A stretch of DNA of 55,974 nt, the filler included, from Jimgerdemannia flammicorona (Eukaryota), in NCBI GenBank assembly GCA_003990765.1. It is 2 parts of 2 records of this genome, joined end to end, with 100 filler letters (N's around TTAATTAATTAA, not from the genome) between each part and the next. Parts side by side here need not be neighbours in the genome. Positions count along the whole stretch, not along the records: positions 1 to 27,949 come from RBNJ01000592.1; 1 more part is not named here. One strand, written 5' to 3'. Position 1 is the first letter of the stretch. The number at the start of each line of letters is the position of its first letter. The position numbers and the translations under genes were made by a program. Shown one piece after another: positions 7,318 to 50,863 of this stretch. The notes below the pieces were generated by a model. It was given only the letters and a program-made list of their open reading frames with translations. It ran no database searches and was not told where the DNA came from.

Positions 7318-7329
7318 AAATATAAATGT

Positions 7330-9174: not shown

Positions 9175-9348
9175 CTGACGAAAACTCCACCAAAACAGAT
9201 GAGACTTGTTGTATACTATAGCTAGACTCTTGCTGCACCTTGTACACCAGAATAGATGATGGGAAAACTGGAAAATGTGTTGCTTGTCATGAAAAGATGT
9301 CTGTGTGGCTTAGCTTACTCTGAATGATTTGAGCAAAAGGAGTGGCCC

Positions 9349-16244: not shown

Positions 16245-16246
16245 TT

Positions 16247-16264
16247 TGGGGGCTCAACTGGGAA
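16247..16264 (+). promoter_or_regulatory. Primer-binding site, tRNA-Pro-like
   Basis: TGGGGGCTCAACTGGGA, 2 nt after the LTR. With CpG decay reversed it resembles the tRNA-Pro PBS TGGGGGCTCGTCCGGGAT. Confidence 0.75.
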
Positions 16265-16802
16265 GATTTCAAAATCAACATGACTTTTCAGCTCACAAGA
16301 ACCCACAGTTAAACTGGATACATTTGATATAACACCAACCTCTGCTACTACAGGAGAACCAGTCATCACTAGTATTTGGACAGGAAGGGAAGTAATCACC
16401 TCAAGACTTGCCAACTACCCAGCATCAGAAGGATCTCAACCAGAAGCAGGAGACAGTACAGCCCAAAATCCCCAACCAGATCAACCAGATCAAGCAGACA
16501 ATACAGACAGCTCTGCTAGAGTTTTTGGAGAACTTATACAAGAACTAGAAGACCTTATTACCCGGACCCAACATCTTACAGCCAGAGACCCCACACCAAT
16601 TTCACCAATAGAACCCCTACCACAACCCCTTGCAGAACCAGAAGTAACTCCTACAAGAATACCTAGGCCTATTCCACCCCACCCAAGAACCAGAACACCA
16701 TCTTCAAGATACCCAAGCACCCTGGTCTCTAGTGACAGTTCAGAAAGTGAATCAGAATCAGAATCCGAATTCGAACCAGAATCAGAAGAAAGTGACAAAG
16801 AA

Positions 16803-19800: not shown

Positions 19801-20045
19801 GCCAAGGATGGGCAGAAGATGCCACCAACTTCATGGAAGCCCTTGACCCTACAGGAAGGAGAGGAATCAATTACCTCCGAGACCCCTCTACTGGAGCCAG
19901 ATGGCCACACCTCAACCTTAGAGCTTGGAGGCTCTCTGCTAGTGGAGCTTCAGCCTTAGGAAAGCCTGAACTCAGCAAGGACATTGCCCAGTATGCCCTG
20001 CTGCACCCCAAGGCCAAACCCCCGATCAAAGCCCACCTATCTTAG
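16803..20045 (+). pseudogene. gag-pol: Single-frame gag-protease-Cys/His spacer-start of dUTPase, with three in-frame stops
   Basis: ORFs at 16803, 18402, 19341 and 19761 share one frame. Zinc knuckle CFHCGQFGHYATKC; protease ILIDTGAA...MILGTNWM directly after the TAA at 18342. Confidence 0.92.
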
Positions 20046-20208
20046 CATTATTCACTAAGTAGAGATCCTATTTCCTGAGGAAGAAGAAGAGCTCCTGGAA
20101 TAGAGTGACCACAGCTCAGATGATGATGATAGAACAGATATAGATGCAGAAGCTGCTTATGCCTATTGGGATGATGACTGAAGAATAGTCTGGGACAGAC
20201 TACCCTTC

Positions 20209-20220
20209 AGTGGGGGCTGA
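20209..20220 (+). promoter_or_regulatory. Polypurine tract of copy 1
   Basis: AGTGGGGGCTGA immediately before the 3' LTR; same motif at 29792-29803 (-) and 49671-49682, with a variant at 26539-26550 (-). Confidence 0.8.
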
Positions 20221-21842
20221 TGTAACAGACCAAAACATATTACCCGAATTATAACTTAGTCAGATGACATGAACAATTAGTATACTTACTCAGCATGATG
20301 TGACTTCCAGTGTATCATAGTTACTCATGTCTGCCACACTTATAATTAGCCAAGACCCCATATCAGGATTGTTTACCTGTGTCCTGTGGACACACTCATG
20401 TCCTGCGGACACACTCATGTCCTGCAGACACACTCATGTTCTGCGGATACACTCATGTCCTGTAGACACACCTGTACCCAGAGGACACACCCAAATATTA
20501 CCGAAGATAGCAAATCTATAGTTAGCCACATAGTAACCAGATAGCAACCAACTTGTATAAATTACCCCAGAGATGAGAGTGAATAAAACCTCAGTCCGAA
20601 ATTGAAGCAAAAGACAAGTCTGCCTACCACACTTCGAGAGGAACTCTACAGCCACTGCTAGGAGATTGTGAGCTTATTTCCCCACTCTGGTCCACTTTCC
20701 GATACAAAGAACGAGTCTGAAATACAAATACCAAAGAAGCCTCTAAAAATTGAGTGTTGGTCCCCTTTCCACTCCAGTCCACTTTCTGATACAAAGCTGA
20801 TTTTGCTGCCAAGTTCGAGGAAGAACTTTGCCACCTTTGGAACTATTGGTTCGCTTGCCAGATAAGCCTGAAGATTTGCCACCTAAGTTCAAGAAGAACT
20901 TCACCACCTTTTGAGTAATCCGCTGCTTAAAGAATAAGCCACCATTTTCAAGTTATCCGCATTCCCAGAGAAAGCCGCCTTGCCCAAGCCAGTTTCTGAT
21001 GCAACTTCACAGTGATCCATTCATGCAAATGAAGCCAGTCTTTGACGCAACTTTGCCAAGAGACCCTTTCCAAGCCACCATCCCATTTCCCAGTTAGAGC
21101 TGCTGATTCAGGAAGAATCTGCATCACCTGCTATTTCTAAGCTATCCACCGTATTCCTAGTTGAAGCTGCCGATTTAGAAGAATCCGTGCCACCCGAGTT
21201 AATTCCCAGTCAAAGTTACCATTTCCAAGAAGCCTGCTGATTCAGGAAGAATCCACATCATTCACCGTTTTCAAGTTATCCGCATTCTCAGAAGAGCCAT
21301 CCAAGTTATTCATTATTCCCAGTGAGCCTAGGGAGAATCCACGCCATATGATTCCCAGTGAGCCAAATCAAGTTATCTGCTGAATTATCAGAACATCCGC
21401 ATAAGGAACCTGTCATGCTACATGAGATCATCATGCAGAAACCGCATAAGGAGAACCGCTAAATTGCCAGATCATCATGCAGAAATCACATAAGGAGAAC
21501 TGCTAAATTGCCAGACCATCATGCACAAGGAGATCGTCACACTATACAGAAATCACCCATTACTCAAGAAGGAAACTGTCCGCACTACACACAAATTCTG
21601 CCATTCCCAGTTGACCCAGGAAGGAAACCCATTCACACAAATTGCTGCTATACCCAGAGAACCGTCTCAATAAGGAAATTGCTCGCAGATATCCAGCTTT
21701 GACTATTATACCACTAAACACCAAGGACCTCAGGAATCTTAGAATATTTTTGTTGCTTTTTGACAAAGTAACTGGGGGCTCAAGCCAAACTACATCAACC
21801 CCCAAACCTTGTAATTTGCCTCTATTGAGCCGGCACATTACA
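20221..21842 (+). repeat. 3' LTR of copy 1 (1622 bp)
   Basis: Matches the 5' LTR plus three extra 19-bp units (20381-20456). Confidence 0.95.
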
Positions 21843-22639: not shown

Positions 22640-24480
22640 CAATCTCTGCTTATCTGATATCCTATGGAAAATTTGAAATACCTCTATAATTTTTACTAAA
22701 CAAAAGTCATTTAAAATACTATTTACTAAGAAAACCAGAACCACTGGCTATGAGAACCTCAGAGAACTCTTTGAAAAGACAGAATAATTATACAATCAAG
22801 TTTAAGTTTAGATAATCAAGGCCTAAGAAAAGCAGAAGAAGTATTATGACTAAAAGTAGAAAAATTAGAAGATTAAGATTGGAGATCAAGTTCTTATTTA
22901 GAGAAGTATGATCAAAATCAACTTTGCTGCCAAATTAGAGCTTAAATGAGAAGGATCTTATTTTGTATATAATATCAGAGAAGCCAGTATCTATATAAGA
23001 AGTATAGATAGATAAATCTTGAGAATAATAATATATATCAACTATCTCAATATATATATATCTATCATTAGTATAATGAATTAGGAGATCTATTAGTACT
23101 TTCAGACCCTTGTCTTCAGCTCTTTCTAAGCCTTTTCAATTCTACTACCATAGTTCTGAGAAGTCTAAGGAAATCAATCTAATAAGTCTGAATATATCAA
23201 GAGAATCTCACTATTATATAATGTTTACTATAGATCTATTAACTATAGATCTACTATATATATAATTAGAGAACATTTGTGAGATCTCTCAATATAAGAT
23301 CAAGTCTATATAAGGAACTCTACTGGTCTGACCTAAAGAAATACTATACCAGTAGATAGATTATATATAATATATAAGAGAAACTCTCTAACTCTCATCC
23401 AGATTCAATTTTACTTAAGTAATAATAATGAATGAATATATCAACCTACTAATCTATTATCAGTAGTATTAAGGTACTATTCTCTGAAAAGAAAGAAGAG
23501 TATCTCAAATAAAGTAACTCGGATATAAAAGGAGATAATAACATAGATATAGATACTGAAAATATCTATAGATATTAGAATAATGACTAAAGACAGTCTG
23601 AGGACAGACTATCTTTTAGTAGAGACTAATATAATAAGTAATATTATAATACAACCAGATGATGAACAAAATAGTTAGAATAGTTACTTAGTATATTTAT
23701 CTCTTATACTACTTTACTATATAAATAATCTGATATACTAAATTAAAACAAATACTATTTATACTCTGGAATACTGTTTCTACTCTAAAATACTATTTCT
23801 ACTCTAGAACACTATTCCTACTTATAAACCACAGATCACATCTTTCTAAACTAATATTACTATATATTTTACAATTACTCAAATAGTAATTAGAAAGCAA
23901 CTATACTTATATAAAATACTCAAGTAATAAGAGTAAATAAACCTTAGTCTAAAATTTATATTACAAACTACAGAACTTGATATTTGATTTCACTCTAGTT
24001 CATTTTCTAATTCAAAAAAAAAAAAAAAAAAAAATTGCTATAGTTATTCAGTCTACTTATCAGATTAAGCCTAAAGAGAAGTCTATCATATTTTGATATA
24101 ACTAAGCCAGTCAGTCAGACATATCTTTATAGTAAACTTGTTTGTACAAATAAAGAAGTCAATTAATATAACTTTGCTTTAAAAAGAAGTATGTCAATTT
24201 TGATATACTTATCAGACTAAGCCTAAATATCTGATTTTGGTATACTTGCCAGACTAAGCCTGAAGACCTAATTTTGATATGCTTATCAGACTAAGTCAGA
24301 AGAACTTGAGAAATTTACTACATTTTAGTCTACTTCTCAAAAGAAGCCCAAAGAATTACCATTATCTTGAGAAATCTACTAAATCTACCTTATTATATCA
24401 AATCTGTACCTAATTAGAAAACTGCTGAAATTATCCATATTATGCAAACAGAATTTGTATCTTTTTATTTTTATTTTTAT
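22640..24480 (+). mobile_element. Decayed 3' fragment of the same Gypsy family (IN end, ORF3 23076-23590, PPT, divergent LTR from 23630)
   Basis: Homologous to 26578-27500; ends ...taatgactaa; LTR carries acttgccagactaagcct repeats. The right boundary is uncertain. Confidence 0.8.
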
Positions 24481-25250: not shown

Positions 25251-27949
25251 TGTAATGTGCTGGCTCAATGGAGGCAAATTACAAGGTTGGGGGTTGATGT
25301 AGTTTGACTTGAGCCCCCAGTTACTTTGTTAAAAGCAACAAAATGTTCTTGGTGTTTAGCAGTATAATAGTCAAGATCTGGATACTGTGTGAGTGGTTTC
25401 CTTTTTAGGATGGTTCTCTGGGTGTAGCGGTGATTTGTGTGTGAATGGACTTCCTTCTTGGGTCAACTGGGAATGGTACAATTTGTATAGCGTGACGATC
25501 TCCAAAGGTATGTGATTTCTGGGTGTGACAGTCTGGCAATCTAGCGGTTCTCCTTATGCGATTTCTGCATGATGATCTCTATGTAGCATGGCAGTTTCCT
25601 TATGCGGGACGTTCTGATAATTTGGCGGATAACTCGATTTGGCTCACTGGGAATCATATAGTGTGGATTCTTCCTAGGCACACTGGGAATGATGAATGAC
25701 TCGGATGTCGCGGTTTCGGCTTCAACTGGGAATACTACTCAGATGGCGTGGGTTTTCTGGGAATGCAGATAACTCAAAAATGGCGGATGGCGCAGATTCT
25801 CCTGAATCAGCGGGCTTCTGGAAAATAACTTGGATGGCTCTTCTGGGAATATAATGGCGTGGATTCTTCCTGAATCGGCAGCTCTAACTAGGAATACAGC
25901 GGATAAAACTGGTGGCATTCTTTGGGAAAGGATCTCTTGGCAAAGTTACATCAAAGACTGGCTTCGTTTGCATGACGAATCACTGTGAAGTTGCATCAGA
26001 GACTGGCTTGAGCAAGGCGGCTTTCTAATACAGTAGAAAAGGTGGAAATCTTCAGGCTTATCTGGCAAGCGAACCAATAACAATAATTCCAAAGGCGGCG
26101 AAGTTCTTCCTTGAGCTTAGGTGGCAAACTCGAATTCTTCAGGCTTATCTGGCAAGTGAACCAAAAACATATCAGACTCTTCTTTGTATCAGAAAGTGAA
26201 CTGGAGTGGAAAGGGGACCAATGCTCAATCTTTAGAGACTTCTTTGGTGTTTGTATTTCAGACTGAGGTTTTTATTCACTCTCGCCTCTGGGGTAATTTA
26301 TACAAGTTGGTTGCTATCTGGTTACTATGTGGCTAACTATAGATCTGCTACTTATGGCAGGTGTACAGAGTCTGTACAGTGTACAGAGTCTGTACAGGTA
26401 AACAGACCCTTTCTGGTATGTCTGGCTATTTATACAGTTTCAGCAAGGGTTGCTGGTTACTAAGCTGAGTGTTCACGTCATCTTGTTTGCATCATCTGGT
26501 TAAGATATGATTCGGGTGGTACATCTTGGCTTGTCACATCAGCCCCTACTGAAGAGTAGTCTGTCTCAGACTATTCTTCAGTCATCATCCCAATAAGCAT
26601 AGGCTGCTTCTGCATCTATACCTGTTCCATCATCTTCATTATCTGTACTGGGGTTACTCCATTCTAGGAGTTCTTCTTCTTCTTCAGGGAATAGGATTTT
26701 GACAGAGTTGATGATGCTCAGATAGGTGACGGAGTTCATTCCTTGAATATCATTCAGGGAGAATTGTGTCTGTGTCAGGGCTGTGACATTTCGTTTATAA
26801 ATGGTGTATAGTCTGTCTGCGGCAGTAGTGTCTCTTCTGGTCAGACCCATAGTGTTTCTGATGTAGGTCTGTTCTGGGGCTGGAAGGTTCTGCAATTGTT
26901 CACTGATTGCATAATAGGCCTGCAGTTGGTGGACTTGTAGTAGGTGTCAGGCCAAGGTAAGATTTTCTTGATGAGCTTGGATCCTTTGGAGGGGGCTTCC
27001 ATTGGCTTGGCCGAATTGGGGTAGAGGAACAGGTAAGGCTTGGAAAGAGCTGAGGACCAATGTCTGGAGGTGCTGATCAATCCTTTGGCTCATAGTGTGG
27101 AGGGGAAATATAGTTTGAGGCGATTGATGTGTACTGGTGTTCTCAGGGTTTGTTCATCCATGCTTCTTAAATAGATGCTGGTTCCTCTGATGTTGTGTAC
27201 AAGGTAAGGTCCTTCCCATTTCGGTTCCAGTTTGGCGGCGAAGTTTGTCTCAATCATGCTTCTCCAGACTAGGACTTGATCTCCAATCTTGATCTCCTGA
27301 TCTTTCTGTTTTTGGTTATAGTACTTCTTTTGTCTTTCCTGGGCTTTGATAATCTGTCCTTGGGCTTGATTTCATAACTGTTCTGCCTTCTTGAGGAGGT
27401 CTCCGAGATTCTCATGGTCAGCAGTTCTGGTTTCCTTGGCAAACATCATTTCGAATAGCTTTTGTTTAGTGGATGTAGCAGGGGTATTTCGAATTTCCCA
27501 TAGGATCTCAGGTAAGCAGAGGTCCCAATTAGTAGGGTTAACTCAGGCAAGTCCTTTCTTGATGGTCTGGTTCATTCTTTCTGTCATACCATTGGTCTGG
27601 GGGTGGTATGATGTGGTCCTTTTGAGGTGGATCTTGTGAATTCAGGCATAACTTGTGATTATATTGTTGATAAATTCTGTGCCTCGGTCAGAGATAAGTT
27701 CTTCTGGAGGTCCATATCTGAGTGTGAGTCCATGGAGGAGGCCTACAATGGTTAAGGCATCTGCGATTTCCATTGGGAAAGCCTCAGGCCACTTGGTCAG
27801 ATGTTCTACAAATACAAGGATATATTTGTTTCTTCTTGGTGTAACTGGTAGAGGTCCAATTACATCTACTCCCCATCTTTGAAAGATGTGAGTGGGTGGG
27901 GGAATCGGTTGCAGAGGGGCTTGATAGTTCTTCTTTCCTTGGTACTTCT
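25251..27949 (-). mobile_element. Gypsy copy 3, 3' portion (integrase, ORF3, PPT, 3' LTR 25251-26538), cut by the assembly gap
   Basis: VDVIGPLPVTPRRNKYILVFVEHLTKWPEA, ISDRGTEF, YHPQTNGMTER, PKWEGPYLV; LTR TGTGAC...ATTACA. Confidence 0.93.
26578..27093 (-). CDS. ORF3: accessory ~171-aa protein of unknown function downstream of integrase (one in-frame TGA)
   Basis: ATG overlaps the pol stop (ctATGA). MSQRIDQHLQTLVLSSFQ...AADRLYTIY...LFPEEEEELLEW...DAEAAYAYWDDD*. The TGA at 26947-26949 is AGA (Arg) in other copies. Confidence 0.8.
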
Positions 27950-28049
27950 NNNNNNNNNNNNNNNNNNNNNNNNNNNNNNNNNNNNNNNNNNNNTTAATTA
28001 ATTAANNNNNNNNNNNNNNNNNNNNNNNNNNNNNNNNNNNNNNNNNNNN
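27950..28049. other. Assembly gap with artificial six-frame stop linker
   Basis: 44 N + TTAATTAATTAA (27994-28005) + 44 N. Confidence 0.97.
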
Positions 28050-29722
28050 TTTTTTAGTCACTCAGACCTCTCTTTTTATTAATACTATCTATTATCTAAA
28101 TAATACACAATGCCCAACCCTATCCAATCCCCCTAGGAGGGCCCCTCCCTTCTACCTCCACTCAATGAAAGACCACTTTATCTAACACTATCTCTACCCA
28201 TCTACCACTCTGTTCACAGATTCTCTCTACCAGATGATAATATTTACCACCCTAGGGACCCTTGCCCTCTCCTCTCACATCATCCTCACTCTTCTCTTTT
28301 CTAAAACTGATCCTTTCTATTGTGGCATCTCAATCTACATCCTGTGGGCACCTCTTGGTATTCCCTGTACCATCACTCTGCTCTACTGGCTATTCCTTTC
28401 CTCTCCAGCACCCAATACTGCCCCACTCTTTTCTCTGTCTGATCAGCAGATGTTCTCCCAGCATTGGCTAGTAGACCACTTGTGATCCTTGTTACCTCAT
28501 ATTGCTTAATCCTCACCTTTATGCTGGATATAGCTTTCAGATAGGCACTGTATCTGATACTACAGTGGTAGGTCTGGCCAACTATGAAATTCAAATCTTG
28601 GGCCATTGATCAAGTGATGTATTCTGCTCTTACATTTATATATCTATTTTATGCATTCTTTCTCTTTGTTCTGTCACTGTCCCCAATGTCTGTCTTCATT
28701 ACTAATTTACCCTGACTACTTATTAACCCTATGACTGCTTGTCATCCTACCCTGCTATGCTACCCATATTCATTTCTAATGATTACTCATCGACCTCTCC
28801 ATCCCACTCAACCTCCTGACCACTTGTCAACCCCATGACCACTCATCATCCTACCCCACTGTGCTACCTGCACCCATTCCTATCAACCACTCATTGTTCT
28901 ACCCTACTGTACTGTCCATGTCCATTTCTATTAACCACTTATTGACCTCTCCACCCCACCTGACCTCCTGACTGCTCATTGACCCCATGACCACTTATCA
29001 TCCTACCCTACTACACTGCTCATATCTGTTTCTAATAACCATCTGTTGCTCTACCATTTCTCCTTCTCTCTTGAGTTCCTCATATTTCCTCTGCTCTCTC
29101 TTATCTCTCTCATAGCATTCTGCATCTTCCTTCATTTGGGACATTTATTTGGGCTAGACTTTATAGCCCTTTCTCTTTTTCATACTCCTTTCCTTTTTCA
29201 GACTTCCCAAATAAGACATATACATATATATACATATATATATTTCAGGTTTAAACATTGATCATATAGAAATATTGAATAGATAATATCAATTGAGATT
29301 ATAAGTCAATGGATATGCATCAATTAGTTACTTGCAGTCACAGATTAGGAGTGGGCAGAGAGGTCTTACATTGTATATATACACTGGTTCTAGATATTTA
29401 GCACCAAAGACATTTTGTGCCTTTATGCAATTCATATATGCTAGCTAGTACCTAAGATAGATATATACTGCTTACACATTAGATACTCAGTGGAATAACT
29501 CAATTATCTACTTTACCACTTGTTCACTCTACTGCTCATCTTCTTTTTTTTCTATCAACCATCTCTCTCTTTGGTTTTTCTTTTTGGGCTGGGCTGGACT
29601 TTATAGCCCTTTTTCTTTTTCATACCCCTTTTCTTTTTCAGACTTCCCAAATAAGACATATGTATATATATATATACATATATATATTTCGGGTTTAAAC
29701 ATTGATCATATAGAAATATTGA
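28050..29722 (-). mobile_element. Putative non-autonomous LINE-tailed retroelement, no RT seen
   Basis: T-run plus tagtcactcagac LINE terminus; 3' part homologous to 55587-55974; internal tandem repeats 28725-29040; ~130-bp duplication 29151-29278 / 29591-29722. Confidence 0.55.
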
Positions 29723-30329
29723 GCTTAGTATACTAGATATAGTATGTAGCTAATTTATGATTTCAGTGGTGCAATTCTATTACTTATCATATCAGCCCCC
29801 ACTAAAGAATGGTCTGCCCTCAGACAATCCTTTAGTCATTATTCCAATATGTATAAGCATATTCAGTATCAATATCTGAACCAGTATCTTTATTTGGATT
29901 AGAGTTACTCCATTCAACAGGTTCTTCTTCTTTCTTTGAGAACAGGATTTCAATATAGCTGATAATACTCTAGTAGGTGGCAAGGTTTATGTTTTGAATG
30001 TCATTCAGCAGAAATTGTATTTGTGTCAATACTGGGATATTTCATTTGTAGATTATATATAATCTGTCTACAGTAGTGATATTTTTCTGGATAAGGCCAG
30101 TGGAGTTTCTGATGTAGGTCAGGTCTGCTGCTAGGAGGTTCTTCAATTGTATAGTAGGCCTACAGCTGGTGAACTTATAGTAAACATCTGGCCAAGATAA
30201 GATTCTCTTGATGGGTCTGGATTCACTGAAGGGGGTTTCTGTTAGCTTGTTGGAATTGTGAAAGAGAAACCAGGAGTGATTGGAATGAACTCAGAATAAG
30301 AGTCTGGAGGGGCTGGTCAATTGTCTGGT

Positions 30330-33300
30330 TCATAATGAAAGAGGTATATCTTGAGGCAGTTGATGTATACTGATATCCTAAGGGTTTGTCTATCTATGCT
30401 TCTTAAATAGATGCTGGTTCCTCTAATGTTGTATACAAGATAAGATCCTTCCCATTTGGGCTCCAGTTTGGCAGCAAAATTTGTTTCAATCATGCTTCTC
30501 CAAACTAGTACTTGATCTCCAATCTTGATCTTCTGATCCTTCTGTTTCTAGTTATAGTACTTCTTTTGTCTTTTTTGGGCTTTGATAATCTGAGCTTAGA
30601 CTTAATTATGTAACTGTTCTGCCTTCTTGAGGAGGTCTCTGAGATTCTTATAGTCAGTAGTTCTGGTTTTTTTTTAGCAAACATCATTTCAAATAGCTTT
30701 TGTTTGGTGGAGGCAGTAGGGGTATTCTGAATCTCCTATAGGATCTCAGGTAAGCAAAGATTCCAATTGGTAGAATTGACTTGACAAGCCCTTTCTTGAT
30801 GGTCTGGTTCATTCTTTCTGTCATACCATTGGTCTGAGGGTGATATGATGTGGTCCATTTGAGGTAGATCTTGTGAATTTATACATAACTTGTGATTATA
30901 TTATTGATAAATTCTGTGCCTCAGTCAGAGATAAATTCTTCTGGAGATCTATATCTGAGTGTGAGTCCATGGAGGAGGCCTACAATGGTTAAGGCATCTG
31001 TAATTTCCATTGGGAAAGCCTTAGACCACTTGATCAGATATTCTACAAATATAAGAATATACATATTTCTTTTTGGTATAACTGGTAGGAGTCCAATTAC
31101 ATCTACTCTCTATCTCTGAAAGATGTTGTCTGGTAGTGTAATTGGTTGTAGTGATGCTTGGTAATTCTTCTTTCTTTAGTACTTTTGGCAGATATTACAT
31201 TTCTTGAGTATGTCCTAGACTTGTATTCTGAGATTAGGCCAATATTGGTATATTGTTCACAACTTTTCTTCTATATTTGCTTGTCCTTGGTAGGCTTTCT
31301 GGTATTCCTTTCAAATGAGATCTTCTTATACCTTGATGGTCTGAGGAGCTTCCTTTAAGATATAGTTCCTCAGAATACCCTTCTTCTAGTTTATTGGGGC
31401 TGGCAGGAAAGTATATCAATATTGTTGTGAGCTTTCCCTGCTTTGTAGATAATGGTAATTTTGTAATCCTGAAGGATGAGGATCCAGTTGACTAGGATTC
31501 TGGTGGGTTTATTACAGTTGAATAGCCATTTAAGAGCTGCATGATCTGTGATTAGGGTGAATCTTTTTCTGATAAGGTAATGCTTAAACAGGGTACCACT
31601 TATATGACTGCAAGATATTCCAGTTTGGTGCTACCATAGTTCATCTGCTGCTGATTGATAGCTCTGCTTGCATAAGCTATCACATAGTATTGTTGATCAG
31701 GTTCTTCTTAGACTAGAACTGCTCCTAGGCTATCTTTAGAAGCATCTGTATACAAGATGAATGGCTTCTATAGATTTGGGCATATAAGGATTGGTGCTGT
31801 AGTCATACAGTTCTTGAGTTCTTTGAAGACTTCCTCTTGTAATTCTGTCCATTTGAATGGTACTTCTTTCTTGAGAAGAATTCAGATTGGGGCAGCAATT
31901 TGAACAAAGTTCTTGATAAATCTTCTGTAGTAGGATACTAGCATTAGGAATAATAATATTTCCTTAAGGGTCTTGAGTACTGGCCAGTTGTTGATCTTCT
32001 CAGTTTTCTTTAGATCTGTATGGATTCCTTCTTTCAAAACTATGAATCCAAGGAATTCAAGGTTCTGTTTTCTGAAATAATATTTCTTGGCATTGAGTCT
32101 CAGGTGGTTCTTGCAAGTGAGCTTGAAGAATTCCTCTATATGATACAGATGTTCTTTGAAGTTGGCTGAATAGATGTTGGAATCATCCATATATACAATC
32201 AGGTAGTGGTGGATCAAGGGAGCATAGACTGAATTCATCATCCTCTAAAAGGTTGGGGGTATATTGCAAAGTCCAAAGAGTATTTGGTGATATTCAAATA
32301 GTTTTCCTAGAGCAAGGAAGGCTGTCTTTTGAATGTCTTTTGAGTCCATGGAGATCTCATGAAATCCTGTAAAAGGCCCATACTGCTGAAGTATCTGGTA
32401 TCTTATAACTGATCCAAAAGGTCATCAATTCTGAGCAGAGGATAGGTATCCTTTTTGATGACTGAATTGAGTTTTCTGTAATCTACACAGAGTCTCTATT
32501 CTCCTTTCTTTGGTATAATAAATATAGGGCTGGCCCAGGGGCTGGTAGAGGATTAGATGACTCCATTGTCTAAGAGTTCTTGAATGTACTCCTTTTCAAA
32601 TGTTTTTAAGTAATGGGGTATTTTATAGGGTTTCTGCCAAATGGGTGTTGCATTTTCTGTATTTATGCTATAGTGATATGATGGATTATATGGCAGGTTG
32701 CCATAATTAGTAGTAAAGATATCTTGATATTTGTTGAGGAGTTCTACTAGTTATTACTATTATTGGGGTATTAATTCTTTTCCAATGTTAGTGGAAGGCT
32801 TCACTGTCTCCTGGGTCGCTGAGGGGCCTTTCCTTTCTTCTGAGACCTTTTGCTATTTTCTGATAAGTTTAGTTTATAAACTTCTCTATAAGTTTGGCTA
32901 AGAAAAGGCACCAGATATCCTATGATGATTCTTTTTAGCAAGATAATAGTTTCCCAACTTTGGTTGGTTGCTTGAGAGTATACTGGGTTTATCTTGTCAG
33001 GGAATATGTATGTGTCCTTCTATGTCCAGGTGTGGGATATCTTCATTGGTTGAAGAAAAGGTTTCTGGGGTCAGATAGTGCAAAGATTTTGAAGGTGGTT
33101 TGTTCTCTAGACTCCAGGATGAGATTCTTGTACAGTTTGACTAGTTGGCAATATACTTGCTGAGGGACATTCCTCTTGAGGTAGTTGACTTAAAGGAGAT
33201 ATACTTTCTTTTTATCTGAACTTCCAAATCCTTTGGCTTGTCTTATTCCTTCAGTCAGTTCAGAGACTTCTTATAATTGTGGAGTCTTGATCTTCATGAA

Positions 33301-36300
33301 GACTGCTTGGACAATCTTCTATCCTCTAATAATTTGGTGCCATTCTGTACTACTGTTGTATAGAATAACCTTAATTTTATCTGGTTAATAGTTTCTCCTT
33401 CTACAGTTATTCCTTATCTGGTAAGTCCAGATCTTGAGGTCAGTTGGATGTAAGCTTCTTGGGGTGACTATATATGGCTAGTCTGGTTCTGATCATGAAT
33501 ATTTTTCCAGGCTTAATAGATTCATCCTCCAGACTGTGAAGATCATATCCTATATTCTCTGGGTGGGCTTTGGTCAGGGGTTTGGCCTTAGGATGCAGCA
33601 GGGTATACTGGGCAATATCCTTGCTAAGTTCAGGCTGTCCTAGGGCTGAAGCTCTACTAGCAGAGAGCCTTCAGGCTCTGAGATTGAGGTGTGGCCATCT
33701 GGCTCCAGTGGAGGGGTCTTGGAGATAGTTGATTCCTCTTCTTCCTATTGGGTCTAGGGCTTCTATGAAGTTGGTGGCATCTTCTACCCATCTCTGGTGG
33801 GTTGTATGTCTGATAAGAGCTAGAATGTCTTCTCTTAAATTGTAGATCTTGAGGGTCCTTCTTCCTAGCTTCTTGGTCTGGCTTTTTTGGATCTGGCTTC
33901 TATTGTCTCCTCTCTTCAAGGTATGGATCACAATATCATAACTGAGGTGAATCTTCTAATGTCTGCAGTCTCAGCAGTCTGGATGTCTTCTATGGTTGCA
34001 AAATCTCATTGCTTAAAAATGCTGTTTCTGGTTATTGATCTCTTATTGTCTTGGGAATTAGTATCCATCTTGATCATAAGTTGGGAAAAGAGTGGACAAG
34101 GAGTATACTTCTGTTTGGATGAAGAGACCTTGTCCTCTGAATTGGCTTTGTGACTTGGTGATAACTTCTTGGAAGATAGTTGACTGTATAACTGTATTCA
34201 GGGGTTCTGACCTTTGGGGTCTCTGTCTCTCCTATTGGTCTAATAGATGGCACTGGTAACAGTAGTCTCAGAGAGAGTGGAAGACCATTTGGTATGGACA
34301 TCTTACTAGCTGAAAAGCCCTTTCTTGGTGAGTTTCTTTCTTGGGAATAATGGGGATTATGCTGAGTCCTTCTTCTATATTCCAAGGGTCATTATCTTCA
34401 GGTGGTGTCCAGTGAGGGTCATCCTAGGGAATGAGTTCAGGGATCTCTTCTTTCTCAGGTACTTCTCATTCAGGAACTTCTTGGTCAGGAATTTCTTGGT
34501 CAGAAACTTCTTGGTCAAGAACTTCTTGATCAGGAACTTCTTCTTTCTCAGATAATTCTTATCTCCAAATTGCTTGTACTTCTGCAGCTTCAGCTGCAGG
34601 TGTCTCTGGAACATGTCTGCATTTCGTCTTCTTCTTTCTGCACTCTGGGCAGGCTGTGCTAGGCGAATTCCTTATTTCAATAATCTTGGAGTAGTGCTTG
34701 GAGCACTTGTATCTCTTGAGACAGATAGGGCACCCTTTGATTTCTCCTACAATGGCTTCAATAGTAATGGGGACAGTGTTCTTGGCCCATACATTGTCTT
34801 CTGGTCTGTCATCCACTAGATTGATCCTGAGATTGAGTCTGGGATCATTTCTATCTTCAGATTCTTCTTTCTCTTCTATAGTAGATTCTTCATTGCTGGC
34901 ATATTTCTCCTAGATAGTAACCTTCTTTTTCTTCTTTAATTATTCATAGCTAGTTACCTTAACTCTGTACTTCTTGTCTCAGTAGTCAAACTTGAGTACT
35001 TGTTGACCAATATCAACAACTGCATTCATTTCTTTCATCCAGTTAGTACTAAGAATCATATCATAGATGATAGCTTTAGTGATAACAGCTTTTGGGATAG
35101 AGAACTGAATGTGTCTCAGAGAGATAGTAATGTTTCATACTTCTCCAAGGGGTTGAGTTTGGGCTCCATCTGCTACTATGATGCTGAGGTTAGATGGTCC
35201 ATCAATGGGCCATTGGAGAGTGTCCAGGAATCATTTGATAATAATATAGACAGCTGCTCCTATATCTATGAGGATTTTTGCCTTTTGTCCTCCAATATCT
35301 CTATGTAGATAGATGCTGATATGTCTTTCTGCAGCTTGGATAGAGATGGAAGCTAGCTCTTATTGTGGGATCAGAACTTGGCCAGTGCTGGACCTGGTGG
35401 TCCTTAATTATTTATTTTGAACTCCAGCTAATATCAGTTGTAGGAACTACAGAAGGGGGACCTCTATTTTGGCTTCTTAAATCTTCTACTAGGCTTCATT
35501 GTAGATGTCTCTAGGCATGGTCTTTGGGGTGTACTTCTTCTTGGGTTTTGGGGCAACAGGTTTCTGTTCTTCTTATTCCATCTCTTCATTTTCTGATGGC
35601 AACTCATTTATCTTGAGACAAAAGGTGAGGGAGTCCAGGGAGATATTTCTACTTGCTCCTCTTCATGCTCCTCATCTTCTTCCTGGATAATTCTTCTGCT
35701 GATATTCCTGGATGGCCTTCCTATGGGTCTCTTCCTCTTCTCTGCTGGGTAGACTATTTTTCAGATGGTAATCTTGATAGGGTACAAGTCTAGGTCACTG
35801 TAGTCTTCACTGTTGCTTGCTTCCTTGAAATCTTCAACAGGATGGGCTTCAGTCTTCTTGTACTGAGTGTCATTCCTTTGGTTTGGTGGTTCTGAGTTCC
35901 TTCAGTCACTCCTTTTGTTGTCACATTCAGTAGTATAGTATCCAAATTGTCTACATAGAAGCATTGGACTTGGGCTCTGTCTCGAACAGGGTATCTTCTT
36001 TTCTCTTGCTGGTAGCTTCTATTATCTCTTGGTAGATAACCTTGGTTCCTCTGAGGTGGATATCCTCTGTTGTCTTGGTGGCTCTGATTTTTGTATGTAG
36101 TGAGTTTTTCAATCTGCCCAACCAATTGGTCCAACTTGGAGCTGAGGTCTTGAATTTTACTTCTGTCTTTCTTTCCTTCTTTGGCTGGCCTTCTTTCTTC
36201 AGATCTTTCTTATCCTTGGAGGAGTCCTTGTAGAGCTTTGACCAGGATGTCTTCCATATTATCCTTCTTGCCATAGTCACTCCAGATAGTTCCTTGTCTG

Positions 36301-36824
36301 ACATCAAAGAATCCTTGAGCTATATCTACTTGCTCTTTAGACCTTCTGATGCCTAGGGTGTGAACATACTGGGCAATGTTCAGAGGAATTCCATTCATGA
36401 AGGTCATTAGACCTATGATATCCTGGTTGGTGGCATTGAACCCAGTGGCATATATTCTCTTCTAGATTCTTGTAAAGAAAGCTCTGGGTGATTCTCTAAG
36501 ATTTATCTTCATCTCTATGATAGATTCTTAAGTCTTGTGGCAGGTTTCATTTCCTGCATACTTTTCAATAAGTCAGTGGACCATAGCTACATATTCTAGC
36601 TCATAAGATACTGTTGCTTATATCTGTCTTACTAGTTCTGAATGTGAGTTATTTGCTGTTCAGTGGAAAATTCCCCTGACTGGTTCTCTGAGCTGAGTCT
36701 TATAGATAGTGATTTTTCTTTTATCTGAAAGATTCCTCAGGGCTGCAATTCCTTCAATTCCATCAAGGAATTCTCTGGGGTCTTCCTCTGGATAATCTGC
36801 AAAAGTTGGTAGTAAGGTGGCCAT
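30330..36824 (-). pseudogene. gag-pol: gag-pol pseudogene of copy 2
   Basis: [80 protein letters not shown]. Confidence 0.92.
33214..33600 (-). pseudogene. dut: dUTPase domain within pol, between protease and RT
   Basis: Trimeric dUTPase motifs in order: IGYDLHS (I), SRSGL (II), GITVEGETI...IKVILYN (III, partly deleted), G*KIVQAVF (IV), RQAKGFGSS (V). Small frameshifts. Confidence 0.88.
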
Positions 36825-38702
36825 TTTATTATCACTTTCTTCTAATTCTAGTTCTGGTCTAGGTTCTGATTCAGATTTACTTTCTGAACTGTCACTGGAG
36901 ATAAGAGTGCTTGGGTATCTTGAAGATAGAGTTCTGGATCTTGAATGAAGTAGAATGAGCCTAGATATTCTTGTAGAAGCTACTTCTAATTTATAAGAGC
37001 TGATGGTAAAGGTTCTATTAGTGAGATTGGTGGGACTGATATGGGGTGTCTGGCTGTAAGATCTCAGGCTTGTATAATGAGATCTTCTAGTTCTTATGCA
37101 AGTTCTTCAAAATCTCCAACAGGGTTATCTGTATTATCTGGTTGATCTAGTTGAAGATTTCGGGCTATACTGGCTTCTGGTTCTGGTTGGAATCCTTCTG
37201 ATGCTGGATAGTTGGCAAGTCTTGATGTGATTACTTCTCTTCCTGTCCAGATGCTGGTAATAACTGGTTCTCCTGTAGTGGCAGAGATTGATGTTGTATC
37301 AAATATATCCAGTTTAACTGTAAGTTCTTATAAGCTGAAAAGTCACATCAATTTTTGAAATCTTCCCAGTTGAGTCTCCAAATATAATATACCTGACTCA
37401 ATAGAGGCAAATTACAAGGTTGGGGATTAATGTAGTTTGGCTTGAGCCCTAGTTACTTTGTCAAAAATAACAAATTGTTCTAAGATTCCTGAGATCCTTA
37501 GTGTTTAGTAGTATAATAGTCAAGTTCTGGATACAATAGTCAATTTTGTTGGGTTTCCTTATTGGGATAGTTCTCTGGATGTAGCAGCAATTTGTAAATG
37601 GGTTTCCTTCTTAGGTCAACTGAGAATTGGTAGAATTTTATGTATAGTGCAAGTAGTTTTCTTCTTGAGTAATGATAATCTCTATGTAATAATCTTGTGT
37701 AGTATGAAGAGTTTCTTATGTGTGATGGTCTGACAATTTAGTGGTTTTCTTATGCAGTTTTGGCAGATGACTCAGTTTGGTATAGATTCTTCTGAATCAG
37801 TGATTTGGGAATAGAAGATGGTATGGATTCTTCTTACTGGGAATTGTACTGGTGGCAGATTCTCTGAATTGGGCTCACTGGGAATAAATGAATAACTTAG
37901 ATAACATAGATAACTCAGATAACTCAGATAACTCAAATGTCACAGATTCTTTCTGAATTGGCTCACTTGAAATAATAACTTGGGTTCTTGGCAAGTTACA
38001 TCAAGACTGGCTTCATTTACATAAATGAGTTCACTGTGAAGTTATATCAAAAGACTGACTTGTGGCAAGATTCCTTAAGGCTCTCTGGGAATGTAGGTTT
38101 CTCTTCAGGCTTATCTAGCAAGTGGACCAAAACATAGCAGCTTATTCCTTAAGCAGTAGATTACTCAAATAGTGGCGAAGTTCTTTCTCAATCTTGGGCA
38201 GCAAACTCAGGCTTATCTGGCAAGTGAATCAAGACTTTGTATTGGAAAGGAAACCAGAGTGGAAATGGAATGGCAAAGCTCACAATCTCCTAGCAGTGGC
38301 TGTAGAGTTTCTCTCAAAGTATGGTAGACAGACTTGTCTTTTGCTTTGGATTCAAATTTCAGACTCTTTTTTATATTGGAAAGCAAACTGGAGTTAAAAT
38401 ATATTCTGAATTTTAGACTGAGGTTTATTCACTCTTATCTCTGGAGTATTTTATACAGTTGTGGTTGCTACTGGTTACTATGTTACTAACTATAGATTAC
38501 TAACTATAGTAAGTGTTCCTTGAGGATACAGTATTCCTTGAGAGTATAGTGTATCTAGAGAGTATAGGTAAATATACTGTTTCTGGTATCTCTGGCTAAA
38601 TATATAGGTTGGTACAGAAAAGCAGTCTTGGTTGCTTAGTACACTAGATATAGTATGTGGCTAATTTATGATTTCAGTGGTGCAATTCTGTTACTTGTTA
38701 CA

Positions 38703-40613
38703 ATAGATAGATAAATCCTGAGGACATTAGTATATATCAATTATCTTAAGATATATCTCTCCTCATACTATAAATCAGAAGATTGATCAGCACCTCTAGA
38801 CTCTTATCTTTAGTTCATTTCAGTTACTTTTAATTCTCTTACCTCAATTCTGCCCAGCCTATGAAAACTCCCTTCAGCAAATTTAGATTTATCAGAGAAT
38901 CTCACCTTGACCAGATATCTCCTATAAGTCTATCAACTATAGGTCTACTATACAATTAGTAAACAGTTGTAGAACCTCTCAGCTCCAGAATATAGACCAA
39001 TATTAGAAATACTATAGATCTGATATAAAGGCATATTATTGCTACTGACAGACTATACACTATCTATAAATAAAATATCACAGCATTGATACAGGTATAG
39101 TTCTCCCTATATGATATGTATATAAGAGATAAACCTAGCCACCTACTTGAGCATTATTAGTTATATCAAAATCCTATTTCCAGAAGAAGAAAAAGAACTC
39201 ATAGAGTAGAGTGATCCAGATGTCAATAATGACGATAGTTCAGATATTGATGCTAAAGATACTTATTTATATTGGGATGATGACTAAAGAATAGTTTGAG
39301 AACAGACCATCCTTTAGTAGGGGATAATGTGATAAGCAGCAGAACTATTCTACTGAAATTATAAATTAACCATATACTATATCTAGTACACTAAGCAACT
39401 AAGACTAATTTACTATACTAACTTATATAATTAGCCAGATATATCAAAAATGGTATATTTATCTATATAGGACCTGAATACTTGTACAGAATCTGAATAC
39501 TCTACAGGACCTGAATACTTATACTGAATCAGAAAATATCTATTATAAATAGTCTTCTATAATTAGCAATATAGTAACTAGATAGTAACTATAAATGTAT
39601 AAAATATCAATACCCCAGAGATAAGAGTGAATAAACCTCAGTCTGAAAAGTTCAAAAGCAAAAGACAAGTCTGCCTATCATATTTTGAGAGGAACTCTAT
39701 AACTATTACTAGAAGATTGTAAGCTTACTTTTCACTTTAGTCTACTTTTCAATATAAAGCTAAGAAGTCCACTACTTAAGAAATAAGCCACTATTTTCAA
39801 GAGAAGTCTACTATATTTTAGTTCACTTATCAGATAAGTATGAAGAGTTCAAGAAATCTACTATTCTTAAAGAACCTATAAGAAACCTTACTATAAGTCA
39901 GTCTATTTGATATAACTTTACAGTAGAGTCAGTCTATCTGATGTAAATCTATGCAAATGAAGCTCATCTTTAACATAACTTGTCAAGAACCTGTAACATC
40001 CAAGTTATCTGTATTATCTGAGTTATCCAAGTTATCAAGTTATTTGATATTCTCAGAAGCTACTGATTCAGAAGAATCTGTATCAAACTGAGTTATCTAT
40101 GTTATCCAAATTATCTACCATCTAAGTTATTTCCTAGAAACCTACTGATTTAGGAAGAATCTGTATTATTTACCATTTTTCAAGTTATTAGTCAAATTGA
40201 GTCATTCACTAAATCAAGTTATATATCTGTCAAATCTGTATAAGAGATACTATATATAAGATTATTATGTAAAAATTACATACTTTTAGAGATCATCATA
40301 TTATACAGAGAATTATTATACAGAAATTACATAAGAAAAATCACCAAATTGCCAGACTATTATATATAAGAAAACTACTTGTACCATATATATAAATTAC
40401 TGCTATATCTAGAGAACTATCCCAATAAGAAAATTAATATATATATAAATTGACCATTGTATCCAGATTGGCTATTATACCACTAAACACTAACAAGGAC
40501 CTCAGAAATTATAGAATATTATATTGCTTTTTGACAAAGTAACTGGGGGCTCAAGCCAAACTATATCAATCCTCAACCTTGTAATTTGCCTCTATTGAGC
40601 TAGATATATTATA
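38703..40613 (+). mobile_element. Gypsy copy 4, 3' fragment (IN end, ORF3 38770-39287, LTR 39328-40613)
   Basis: Homologous to ORF3 (ends YWDDD*), PPT and LTR; abuts the 5' LTR of copy 2. Confidence 0.88.
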
Positions 40614-47939: not shown

Positions 47940-50863
47940 CTCAAATGACTATTTAACTACAAAGAACCTACTGAAATCCTAGTCTTCTGGATCCTTATCC
48001 TTTAGGATTACAAAATCACCATTATTTATAAAGCAGGAAAAGCTCATAACAATATTGATATACTTTCCTACCAACTCCAAGAATCAGAAGAAGAGTATAC
48101 TAAGAAACTATACTCTAAAAAAGCTCCTCAAACCATCAAGGTACAAGAAGATCTCATCCAAAAAGAACACTAAAAAGCCCACTAAGAATAGGTAAATATA
48201 GAAGAAAATCTGTAAACAATACACCAACATTGGCCCAACCTCAGAATATAAGTCTGAGATATACTCAAGAAATGTAATATCTGCCAGAAGTACCAAAAAA
48301 GGAAGAACTATTAAATCAATCATACTACCAGATAACATTCTTTAGATATGGAGAGTGGATATAATTGGACCTCTACTAGTTATACTAAGAAGAAATAAGT
48401 ACATTCTTATATTTGTAAAATATCTGACCAAGTGGCCTGAGGCTTTTCCAATAGAAATTGCAGATACCCTGACCATTATAGGCCTTCTCCATAAACTCAC
48501 ACTCAGATATAGATCTCCAGAAGAACTTATCTCTAACTGAGATACAGAATTCATCAATAATATAATCACAAGTTATGTCTGAATTCACAAGATCCACCTC
48601 AAATAAACTACATCATATTACTCTCAGATAAATGATATGACAGAAAGAATGAACCAGACAATCAAGAAAGAACTTGCCTGAGTTAATCCTACTAACTGAG
48701 ACCTCTGCTTATCTGAGATCCTATGGGAAATTCAAAACACCCCTGCTGCCTCTATCAAACAAAAACTCTTTGAGGTGATATTTGTCAAGAGAACTAGAAC
48801 TACTGATCATGAGAACTTCAGAGACCTCCTCAAGAAGACAGAACTATTATATAATCAAGTATAAGTTCAGATTATCAAGACTCAGGAAAGATAAAAGAAG
48901 TACTATAACTAGAAGTAGAAGGATCAGAAGATCAAGATTAGAGATCAAGTACTAGTTTGGAGAAGTATGATTGAAACAAACTTTGTCACCAAACTGAAGC
49001 CCAAATGAGAAAGATCTTATCTTGTACACAATATCAGAGAAACTAGTATCTATTTAAGAAACATATATAGACAAATCCTCAGAACACTAGTATATATCAA
49101 CTGCCTCAAGATATATCTCTCTCCTCACCATAAATTAGACAATTAACTAGTATCTCCAGATTCTTGTTCTGAGTTCATTCTAATTACTTCCAGTTCCTCT
49201 CCCACAATTCTGCCAAGTCAATAGAAATCCCCTTCAATAAATCCAGACTTATCAAGAGAACCTCACTCTGGCCAGATATTTACTTCAAGTCCACTAGCTA
49301 TAGGTCTACTATGTAATTGGAGAATAGTTACAGAACATTCTAATAGCAGACCTAACCTACATCAGAAACTCTACTGGCCTTACTCAGAAAAACACTACTG
49401 CTGCAGACAGATTGTATACAATCTATAAACAAAATATCTCAGCACTGATACAGATACAATTCTTCCTAAATAATATACAAAACATAAACCCTACCACCTA
49501 CTGGAGTATCATCAACCATATTGAGATCCTGTTCTCAGAGAAAGAAAAAGAATCTATCAAATAGAGTGACTCTGATCCAAATAAAGATACAGATTCAGGT
49601 ATTGATACTGAAGATACTTATATATATTGAAATTATGACTAAAGGATTATCTGAGGGCAGACCATCCTTTAGTGGGGGCTGATGTAATGAGTAATAGAAT
49701 TGTACTGCCAAAATCATAAATTAGTCATATATTATATCTAGTATACTAAGCAACCAAAACTACTTTACTGCACTAACTTGTATAATTAGTCTGAGATACC
49801 AGAAACAGTATGTTTACCTATACTGAGTGAATACACTACTGAGTAGATATACTATACTAAATAGGTATACTATACCATCTAGAAATACTTACTATAGATA
49901 GTAACTAGATAGTAATTTCAACTATATAAAATACCCCAGAGATAAGAGTGAATAAACCTCAGTTTGAAAAGTTGAAGTAAACTAAAGAAGCCTTTAAAGA
50001 TTGAGCATTAGTTTCTTTTCCTCACTCTAGTCCACTTTCCGATATAAAGATTGATTAGTATACTTGCTAGATAAGCCTGAAGATTTGCTACCAAAGTTTG
50101 AGTGAAGAACTTTACTGCCATTTGAGTAATTTGTTACTTAAGAAATAAGCTGACATTTTTAAGTTACCATATTCCCAGAGAGTCTTAAGGAACCTTGCCA
50201 CAAGTCAGTCTTTTGATATGACTTTATAGTGATTTATTTATATAAACAAAGCTAGTTTTTGACATAACTTACCAAGAACTTAAGTTATCAAGTTATCTAA
50301 TATTCTCAGAAGAATCCTACTGATTCAGAAAGAATCTGCAATATCCAAACTATCCAAGTTATCTAAATTATCTATATCATCTGAGTTATTTACTTATCTC
50401 AGTAAATCTGATTCAGAAGAATCTATATCACTCTCTATTCCCAACTGTCCCATATAAGGAACCCATCATGCTATATAGAGATCATTATACTATATAAGAT
50501 TATCATATAGAAATCACATAAAAAGAAACTGCTAAATTGCCAGACCATTATATATAAAGGAGATTACTATACTATATAAAGATTATCATACTATACAGAA
50601 ACCATTATATAAATTGCCGACACTACACATAAATCACTACTATATTCAAGAACTGTCTCAATAAGGAAATCCACATAAATTGACTATTATGCAAACAGAG
50701 GAACTACTATTGTATTTAGATTGACTATTAAACTACTAAAAACTAAGAACCTTAGAAATCTTAGAACATTTTATTACTTTTTGACAAAGTAACTATGAGC
50801 TCAAGTCAAACTACATCAACCTCCAATCTTGTAATTTGTCTCTATTGAGCCAGGTATATTACA
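47940..50863 (+). mobile_element. Gypsy copy 5, 3' portion (RH end, IN, ORF3 49130-49642, PPT, LTR 49683-50863)
   Basis: DIIGPLLVILRRNKYILIFVKYLTKWPEAF; PPT agtgggggctga; LTR TGTAAT...ATTACA. Confidence 0.92.

Follow-up and report, generated by a model that had tools for sequence, protein, structure and literature searches.

The 55,974 nucleotides of Jimgerdemannia flammicorona DNA analyzed here (GenBank assembly GCA_003990765.1), a 56-kb stretch that we call the window, consist of retroelements nested in each other. One of these is a near full-length Ty3/Gypsy element on the minus strand (copy 2 in Table 1, mapped by tblastn), and it and related elements carry a third open reading frame (ORF3) after integrase, in the position of an envelope (env) gene. 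The order protease, reverse transcriptase (RT), RNase H, integrase in copy 2, together with the flanking long terminal repeats (LTRs), identifies the family as Ty3/Gypsy (Metaviridae). Its overall order is gag, protease, dUTPase, RT and RNase H, then integrase, then ORF3, followed by a hairpin, a polypurine tract and the 3' LTR. Pfam recognized protease (E 2e-09), RVT_1 (1e-32), RT_RNaseH (3e-38), rve (3e-11) and Integrase_H2C2 (7e-11) in element proteins and dUTPase (1.6e-15) at a related metagenome locus, L003, while the gag zinc knuckle scored 19.1 bits, under the cut-off of 20.8. Neither integrase nor ORF3 matched a chromo family in Pfam, and no chromovirus-type integrase extension was seen there.

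The preliminary description of this DNA had placed homologues of ORF3 copy 1 at 23076, 29832, 38770, 49130 and 20040; blastn matched each of them and tblastn extended the matches to the limits given in Table 1. The synonymous differences that it pointed out in the LVLSSF and RLYTIY segments are present in the alignment, as is the acidic tail ending in YWDDD in copy 1. Its treatment of 26578-27093 as an open frame did not hold, since codon 49 of copy 1 is an in-frame TGA (26949-26947) that it did not mention; this stop is the reason why the ORF list gives just 26578-26946 for copy 1. Codon 49 is AGA (Arg) in all 17 soil-metagenome contigs that cover it (8, 5 and 4 from runs X1, X2 and X3, with T for A at 26949 on the plus strand); these are DNA-type contigs from one study that may include the source sample.

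Copies 2 to 5 have GC contents of 0.27-0.37 and numerous stops and frame changes. C-to-T changes in their ORF3 prefer CpA (0.42-0.58 of sites) over CpT (0.09-0.27), and the decay of these copies (23076, 29832, 38770 and 49130) is RIP-like (repeat-induced point mutation), dominated by C-to-T/G-to-A changes. Decay is much milder in copy 1 and in the metagenome loci introduced below, where GC is 0.46. All ORF3 copies in the window are dead through C-to-T/G-to-A decay.

Selection on ORF3

Besides the five copies in the window, DNA sequence of the family was available from three metagenome loci, and further homologues were available as proteins (P-numbers below). Locus L001 covers integrase and 117 codons of ORF3, with three ORF3 stops of the C-to-T type; L002 covers integrase and a whole ORF3 with two late stops; and L003 extends from dUTPase to the start of ORF3, where the ATG is lost.

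Nei-Gojobori comparisons gave pS of 0.58-0.82 and pN of 0.17-0.26 in the ORF3 frame. Wherever dS was correctable (copy 1 with L001, L002 and copies 2, 3 and 4, and L001 with L002), omega was 0.08-0.20, as against 0.54-2.60 in the two control frames of the same six alignments and 0.5-3.1 in the control frames overall; three pairs drawn from copy 1 and the metagenome loci had a pS beyond the correctable range. Uncorrected pN/pS was 0.23-0.37, with 95% bootstrap upper limits of at most 0.49 in seven of seven pairs. The preliminary description had proposed that dN/dS be computed with C>T/G>A sites masked. When transversions alone were counted, which removes C>T/G>A decay, the excess at third codon positions persisted in seven of seven pairs (for example 13/6/27 and 18/8/36 by codon position; chi-square p 0.024 to 6e-05). 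The dN/dS near 1 that it had named as refuting was not observed. Judged by these substitution patterns, ORF3 has been under purifying selection, in its own frame only, while the family was active. ORF3 is on balance probably a genuine, lineage-specific accessory gene of this Ty3/Gypsy family.

Could the region be no gene at all, acting instead in cis as RNA or DNA beside the polypurine tract, with its frame left open by a T-poor, A/C-rich composition? Over the real genes of these elements other frames frequently stay open for long distances, as in frame 2 of L002 (3-371) and frame 0 of L003 (2488-2766), and an internally deleted element in the window (14680-21842) retains the last 47 codons of ORF3. 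However, substitutions pile up at third positions of one frame only, and ORF3 DNA is less conserved than integrase DNA while the residues are nonetheless kept. This disfavors such a reading, which we consider very improbable.

The ORF3 protein and its homologues

ORF3 encodes a protein of about 171 amino acids with at most one Cys. Its body (residues 1-135) is mildly basic, with a pI of 8.8-9.6 in clade A as defined below, and its last 36 residues contain 15-18 Asp/Glu, no Lys/Arg and conserved Trp/Tyr, ending in AY.YW(D/N)DD in both clades. Conservation is highest in an N-terminal block (Q3, R4, D6, L9, Q10, L12, L14, S15, S16, F17, Q18, L20, P21, L24, P25 and F27). The protein is predicted to be all-helical in an AlphaFold model with a mean pLDDT of 50.5.

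A word-indexed search of 5.8 billion proteins returned six matches from 27 candidates, and a profile search of 1.84 billion proteins returned five representatives at E<=1e-3, all of them in-family and none longer than 157 amino acids; a fused integrase-ORF3 form was not among these representatives. Together with their cluster members, the six matches include four intact metagenome proteins (P0001, P0008, P0002 and P0010), which are open over 170-172 amino acids. Where measured, these proteins, of clade A, are 73-75% identical to copy 1 (P0001, of 171 amino acids, 75%; P0002), and a second clade, clade B (P0006, P0011 and P0013), to which the ORF3 of L002 also belongs, is about 50% identical.

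No Pfam family was matched at E<=0.01 by ORF3 or the homologues scanned, which included P0001, P0002 and P0013. A match to an already described retroelement domain, which according to the preliminary description would remove the novelty, was thus not found in Pfam. The best hit of a sequence profile against PDB was tissue factor at E 0.093, which we take as noise, and the matches of a fold search with the low-confidence model did not exceed Z 5.2 (over 57 residues), under the helical background. For P0001 an Atlas model is available (pTM 0.68, pLDDT 0.76); its best structural neighbor in the Atlas has a TM of 0.37, and Atlas feature matches were to unrelated hypothetical proteins (0.93 and <=0.87). 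Comparison of ORF3 with the gag of the element itself gave an hhalign probability of 0.45%. The viral contigs and prokaryote genomes searched contained no ORF3 relatives; an integrase-based scan of the viral contigs gave relatives at 25-38% identity only, and these were not used. RT is at most about 50% identical to named proteins (pseudoscorpion, Rhizopus, Rhizophagus, plants). By these searches ORF3 appears to be an orphan, with no detectable relatives outside the family. The article text searched contained no description of it.

From its position ORF3 might be taken for what is left of a shrunken envelope gene, and the model predicts a 36-residue helix at residues 34-69 that might recall such an origin. 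The protein is only 171 amino acids long, however, and its highest 19-residue Kyte-Doolittle mean is 0.94-1.46 in five homologues, i.e. there is no hydrophobic segment, as the preliminary description had noted in finding no obvious signal peptide or transmembrane segment. A heptad register is not evident either, with hydrophobic residues at no more than 7 of 12 a/d positions. Pfam gives no match to an env family, and the whole short frame is under selection. Because it lacks a hydrophobic segment, has 0-1 Cys and matches nothing in Pfam, we regard ORF3 as neither an envelope protein nor any retroelement domain that Pfam covers, and descent from env is extremely doubtful. The earlier proposal of a selected, non-env accessory protein is borne out by these features together with selection in the ORF3 frame and the intact homologues.

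Stop/start overlaps at two gene boundaries

Integrase of copy 1 ends in VHINRLKLYFPSTL-TGA on the minus strand, and the ATG of ORF3 overlaps this stop. In-frame ATGA, the stop/start overlap required of a termination-reinitiation cassette, is present in copy 1, L001 and L002. Copies 3 and 4 and L003 have ATAA, which reflects G-to-A decay that keeps the stop and destroys the start. The other junction letters given in the preliminary description also hold (ATAA at 38770 and 49130, and TAATG at 23074, within TAATGA at 23074-23079). For copy 2 only part of its reading stands: the letters ATGA are present at 30330-30333, but the TGA is out of the integrase frame as aligned, the tail being 4 nt shorter than in copy 1. 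Its statement that ORF3 is coupled to pol by ATGA is accurate as far as the letters go.

The residue after Met is Asn (4) or Thr (9) in 13 of 13 homologues with Met at the aligned start, and Ser (AGC) in copy 1. The base after ATG is thus always A while the second residue varies, which suggests constraint on the overlapping TGA. Upstream of the overlap, from -220 to -41, third-position identity among three lineages is 157/180 (0.87) vs 423/630 (0.67) in the rest of integrase.

The boundary between RNase H and integrase looks much the same. The RNase H frame of L003 and L002 closes with ACC CAA TGA, and the same letters open an integrase in the -1 frame, ATG AAC CAA AGG. ATGA is found there at L003:2791-2794 and L002:726-729, and ATAA at L001:152-155 and in copy 2. 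Both junctions share the pattern ATGA-NY-CAR-AGG-A, with integrase starting MNQRK or MSQRK and ORF3 starting M(N/T/S)QR(I/V). A free-standing integrase ORF of 354 amino acids that starts MSQRKG and is 99% identical to that of L003 heads a 19-member cluster. Four of four dUTPase-bearing polyproteins found with RT end 10-35 amino acids past the 'LSR' motif of RNase H, and rve is absent from them. Among related stand-alone integrases, 17 of 30 start with MN, which a further two show at the corresponding alignment position; these are known from protein only, and the ATGA claim is limited to the DNA loci of the family. On this evidence the stand-alone integrase ORF is no accident of decay. Third-position identity around this second ATGA, compared in one pair, shows a milder rise (134/160 vs 82/120), for which recombination is also a possible cause. 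A second ATGA boundary, which as far as these loci indicate is a new point, strengthens the claim of ATGA coupling at ORF3.

Two further observations concern these boundaries. A wider clade of dUTPase-bearing Gypsy elements (P0062, P0102, P0119, P0134, P0137-P0252) has a gag-to-RNase H polyprotein that stops shortly past the 'LSR' motif, with integrase as a separate ORF; its named members are from Rhizophagus and Entrophospora (Glomeromycotina), with integrases 36-37% identical. The 9-mer GGGAAGGAC occurs upstream of both ATGA junctions, at 27207-27215 on the minus strand (about 115 nt away) and in L003 about 50 nt before 2791; it encodes conserved motifs at both places (KWEGPY and KAGRTH) and may be a coincidence.

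How ORF3 may be translated

The repeated junction motif leads us to prefer termination-reinitiation as the route to ORF3. Ribosomes on full-length RNA would stop at the integrase UGA and initiate again on the AUG that overlaps it, and the RNase H/integrase boundary would use the same device. ORF3 would then be made in low abundance and at a constant ratio to the pol products. Our confidence in this reading, including the second use of the device, falls a little short of even. Excerpts of PMC10275272 (here and below, cited papers are drawn on in excerpt) describe termination-reinitiation after long ORFs in caliciviruses (VP2), influenza B (BM2), the victorivirus HvV190S, the hypovirus CHV1 and the SART1 non-LTR retrotransposon. 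As at the ORF3 junction, AUGA or UAAUG follows a long ORF near the RNA 3' end and the downstream product is small, and two of the known cases are viruses of fungi (PMC10275272). In the article text that was searched we found no LTR retrotransposon using termination-reinitiation between pol and a third ORF, and no description of an ATGA pol/ORF3 overlap in LTR elements.

Several points weigh against this reading or against parts of it. A reinitiated free integrase must enter the particle unfused to Gag, which is unusual. The raised synonymous identity before ATGA rests on three lineages, with first and second positions near 1.0 there too; other integrase windows attain third-position identities of 0.82-0.87, and local recombination could also explain the rise. 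The RNAalifold consensus upstream of ATGA is -4.6 kcal/mol with 2 of 13 pairs compensatory, i.e. there is no convincing shared structure, while known reinitiation systems need a defined upstream or downstream RNA element such as a TURBS or a pseudoknot (PMC10275272). The third ORFs of LTR retrotransposons are typically separate transcriptional units made from spliced messages (bdelloid paper, PMC5408684). As for the gene itself, every readable DNA copy of ORF3 carries at least one lesion, so that intact ORF3 is known from protein records alone, where gene callers select openness; and the low AlphaFold confidence makes statements on the fold weak.

ORF3 could instead be real yet made from a spliced or internally promoted subgenomic mRNA, as are env, CERV of the Cer1 element and the bdelloid ORF3s, with ATGA reflecting compaction only. 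Spliced messages are the typical route for such ORFs (PMC5408684), and the post-pol ORF of Cer1 is the last exon of a five-exon mRNA (PMC10309623). At the junction itself a pyrimidine-rich tract is followed by AG (TTTCCCCTCCACACTATGAG in copy 1, CTTCCCTACACTACCATGACTCAG in L001 and L002), and Gln3-Arg4 (CAG/CAA AGG) is invariant. But the first AG lies after the ATG and none lies between tract and ATG, so that an acceptor at this tract would remove the start codon. The boundary of RNase H and integrase also carries a near-identical ATGA-NY-CAR-AGG-A, and splicing at that place is hard to square with the supply of integrase. The base after ATG, moreover, is conserved although the residue is variable. 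We regard a subgenomic message as a serious if unlikely alternative.

A third route would be a programmed -1 frameshift that makes ORF3 a C-terminal extension of integrase, a targeting domain like the chromovirus chromodomain. ORF3 does lie in the -1 frame of integrase, and this frame is open for 20-50 codons upstream of the ATG in P0004, P0006, L003 and L002. Yet the upstream extension is closed in five of eight DNA copies (among them TGA in copy 1 and TAG in L002 and in the decayed copies 2 and 3), at a codon that the integrase frame does not hold constant (GGA/GAA/AGA). Inspected by eye, the last 60 nt have no slippery heptamer common to the copies, with T_TTC_CCC in copy 1 only, and the representative search returned no ORF3-bearing protein longer than 157 amino acids. 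A frameshift product is therefore improbable, and termination-reinitiation remains the route that we prefer.

Divergence and exchange of ORF3

Between the same elements ORF3 diverges about twice as fast as integrase. Copy 1 and L001 differ at 29/15/63 sites of codon positions 1/2/3 over 118 codons of ORF3, and at 22/20/86 over 285 codons of integrase. The contrast is sharper between L001 and L002, which differ at 23 of about 916 integrase sites vs 98 of 339 ORF3 sites, their identity dropping within the first 50-100 nt of ORF3. Since the integrases are nearly identical and the ORF3s divergent, these sequences indicate that ORF3 is a module exchanged by recombination between nearly identical integrase backbones.

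Organization of the elements in the window

Coordinates are collected in Table 1. The upstream part of copy 1 integrase is lost at two 44-base N runs (27950-27993 and 28006-28049); the sequence beyond them, 28050-29830, is of low complexity, with a 152-nt tandem pair at 28747-29050. From the ORF3 stop to the LTR the distance is 36-40 nt in copy 1 and in the element at 14680-21842, whose spacer (20182-20220) repeats the layout of copy 1. In copy 1 the purine-rich tract AGTAGGGGC lies at 26550-26542 on the minus strand before the 3' LTR, and between ORF3 stop and tract there is a perfect 6-bp hairpin, AGTCTG-AGA-CAGACT (26572-26558, minus strand). The hairpin is conserved as AGTCTG-NNN-CAGACT in two copies (26558-26572, minus strand; 20187-20201, plus strand).

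Table 1. Positions in the window of ORF3 copies, element coding regions and gene boundaries
Feature	Position	Strand	Basis or remark
ORF3 copy 1, 171 codons + stop	26578..27093 (tblastn 27093-26590)	-	least decayed in the window
ORF3 copy 2	29832..30333 (blastn 29834-30333; tblastn 30333-29835)	-	GC 0.37; frame change; in near full-length element
ORF3 copy 3	38770..39287 (blastn 38781-39285)	+	decayed; GC 0.32; junction ATAA
ORF3 copy 4	49130..49642 (blastn 49154-49552)	+	decayed; GC 0.34; junction ATAA
ORF3 copy 5	23076..23590 (blastn 23092-23172)	+	most decayed; GC 0.27; junction TAATGA at 23074-23079
ORF3 last 47 codons, internally deleted element 14680-21842	20040..20181 (blastn 20034-20181)	+	
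ATGA overlap, integrase/ORF3, copy 1	27090..27093	-	integrase TGA 27092-27090; ORF3 ATG 27093-27091
RNase H/integrase boundary, copy 2	31391..31394	-	ATAA (decayed ATGA); integrase in -1 frame
Copy 1 integrase, catalytic core and C-terminal part	27093..27947 (tblastn 27947-27105)	-	three in-frame stops; Pfam rve E 1.2e-09
Copy 1 spacer, ORF3 stop to 3' LTR	26542..26577	-	holds hairpin and purine-rich tract
Copy 1 3' LTR	25607..26538	-	begins TGTGACAAG at 26538; BLAST match only over 25607-26350
Copy 2 coding body, whole	30341..37342	-	tblastn
Copy 2 gag	37342-35288	-	tblastn
Copy 2 protease	35284-34274	-	tblastn
Copy 2 dUTPase region	34174-33340	-	tblastn
Copy 2 RT-RNase H	32870-31406	-	tblastn
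Copy 2 integrase	31412-30341	-	tblastn
Copy 4 integrase	48064-49119	+	tblastn
Copy 5 integrase C-terminus	22641-23003	+	tblastn

The reference for the BLAST match of the copy 1 LTR was the 1.6-kb LTR of the element at 14680-21842 (plus strand), the two LTRs of which are 87% identical. This element is internally deleted from the start of the dUTPase region to a point inside ORF3, has kept gag and protease, and is probably non-autonomous. Read-through between its gag and protease was considered and rejected: the TAA at 18342-18344, the sole stop in the two genes, is CAA in copy 2.

About 170 codons of the gag frame are open ahead of its first ATG (16803), over 16281-16802 on the plus strand and 37342-36830 on the minus strand. 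This stretch starts directly after a TGA common to both copies, its differences are mostly at third positions in one part read by eye, and gag might start without an AUG, at a CTG that has a good context (16311). The dUTPase-region and RT frames overlap by about 70 nt with a -1 frame change (L003:1310-1382; 32870-32804 on the minus strand in copy 2); no canonical slippery heptamer was seen in this overlap, and four more distant relatives have one continuous frame there. The window also contains two copies of a LINE-like element with endonuclease and RT, both on the minus strand (about 4500-9350 and about 42400-47100). They are 70-79% identical, their GC skew is strongly negative (-0.32 to -0.45), and each strand has long open frames.

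Possible function and significance of ORF3

To generalize from the viral cases named above, stop-start coupling typically yields a scarce product that partners the upstream one. This, together with the basic helical body and the acidic-aromatic tail, is the reason for considering ORF3 as a cofactor of integrase or the pre-integration complex. It would work with them in the nucleus, and its tail would bind a basic partner, which could be a chromatin protein, histones included, or one of the basic proteins that the element encodes. Such a role, proposed by analogy, is speculative and in our judgment rather unlikely to be correct in this form. Alternatively, ORF3 might regulate in the manner of a transactivator, export RNA as CERV does, or counteract silencing. 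The roles put forward in the preliminary description (regulator, nucleic-acid mimic, anti-silencing factor) are conjectural.

Extra genes after pol occur in several LTR-retroelement lineages, with a function known for very few; one of these is CERV of Cer1, a Ty3/Gypsy element of C. elegans, where CERV is an element-encoded regulator needed for genomic RNA export (PMC10309623). CERV resembles ORF3 in having no homologues beyond a narrow host group, diverging fast and having helical parts (PMC10309623). It differs in that it has 517 amino acids, a five-exon spliced mRNA whose first exons overlap gag, a Cys-rich region, and nuclear localization and export signals (PMC10309623), whereas ORF3 has 171 amino acids, lacks Cys and starts at its own ATG, which lies on the integrase stop; the two were compared by description. 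With regard to a Rev- or CERV-like export factor, the Leu/Pro-rich invariant block L9...F27 is a lead only.

LTR elements of bdelloid rotifers (Vesta, Juno, TelKA) likewise have dUTPase between protease and RT, and their post-pol ORF3s are family-specific, modular and exchanged between element lineages (PMC5408684). These include a paramyxovirus-like fusion protein, a GDSL lipase, a DEDDy exonuclease, and transmembrane or coiled-coil proteins (PMC5408684). ORF3 of the present family has no match to an enzymatic Pfam family and no membrane segment. Fungal dUTPase-bearing Gypsy elements are known from Postia placenta (PosPlaTy3), Phanerochaete chrysosporium and Tuber melanosporum (Tmt1), in some with dUTPase between protease and RT, and an 'additional ORF with unknown function' is named in the legend of one figure (PMC2864245). 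The surveyed elements bear a chromodomain (PMC2864245), and none was found here; this comparison too is by description.

The new points are the double ATGA architecture and the modular exchange of ORF3, neither of which we found described in the literature searched, and a protein family that has no detectable relatives yet is under clear purifying selection. With the repeated ATGA architecture a eukaryotic retroelement could obtain three products from a single RNA and would need no splicing. More broadly, the clade may translate its full-length RNA as a polycistron, serial AUGA reinitiation yielding free integrase and then an orphan 19-kDa, fast-evolving and swappable module directed against a host factor, in chromatin tethering or counter-silencing; we offer this extended scheme tentatively and think it doubtful as a whole. 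If reinitiation were not confirmed, ORF3 would still be a well-supported new accessory gene family. If it is true, LTR retrotransposons would join the few eukaryotic systems in which reinitiation follows a long ORF, with a compact cassette of about 250 nt of the integrase 3' end, AUGA and the ORF3 start, and serial reinitiation would make ORF3 the first LTR-retroelement accessory gene known to use stop-start coupling. Since ORF3 outpaces pol in divergence and moves between backbones, it may then represent an unexplored interface between element and host.

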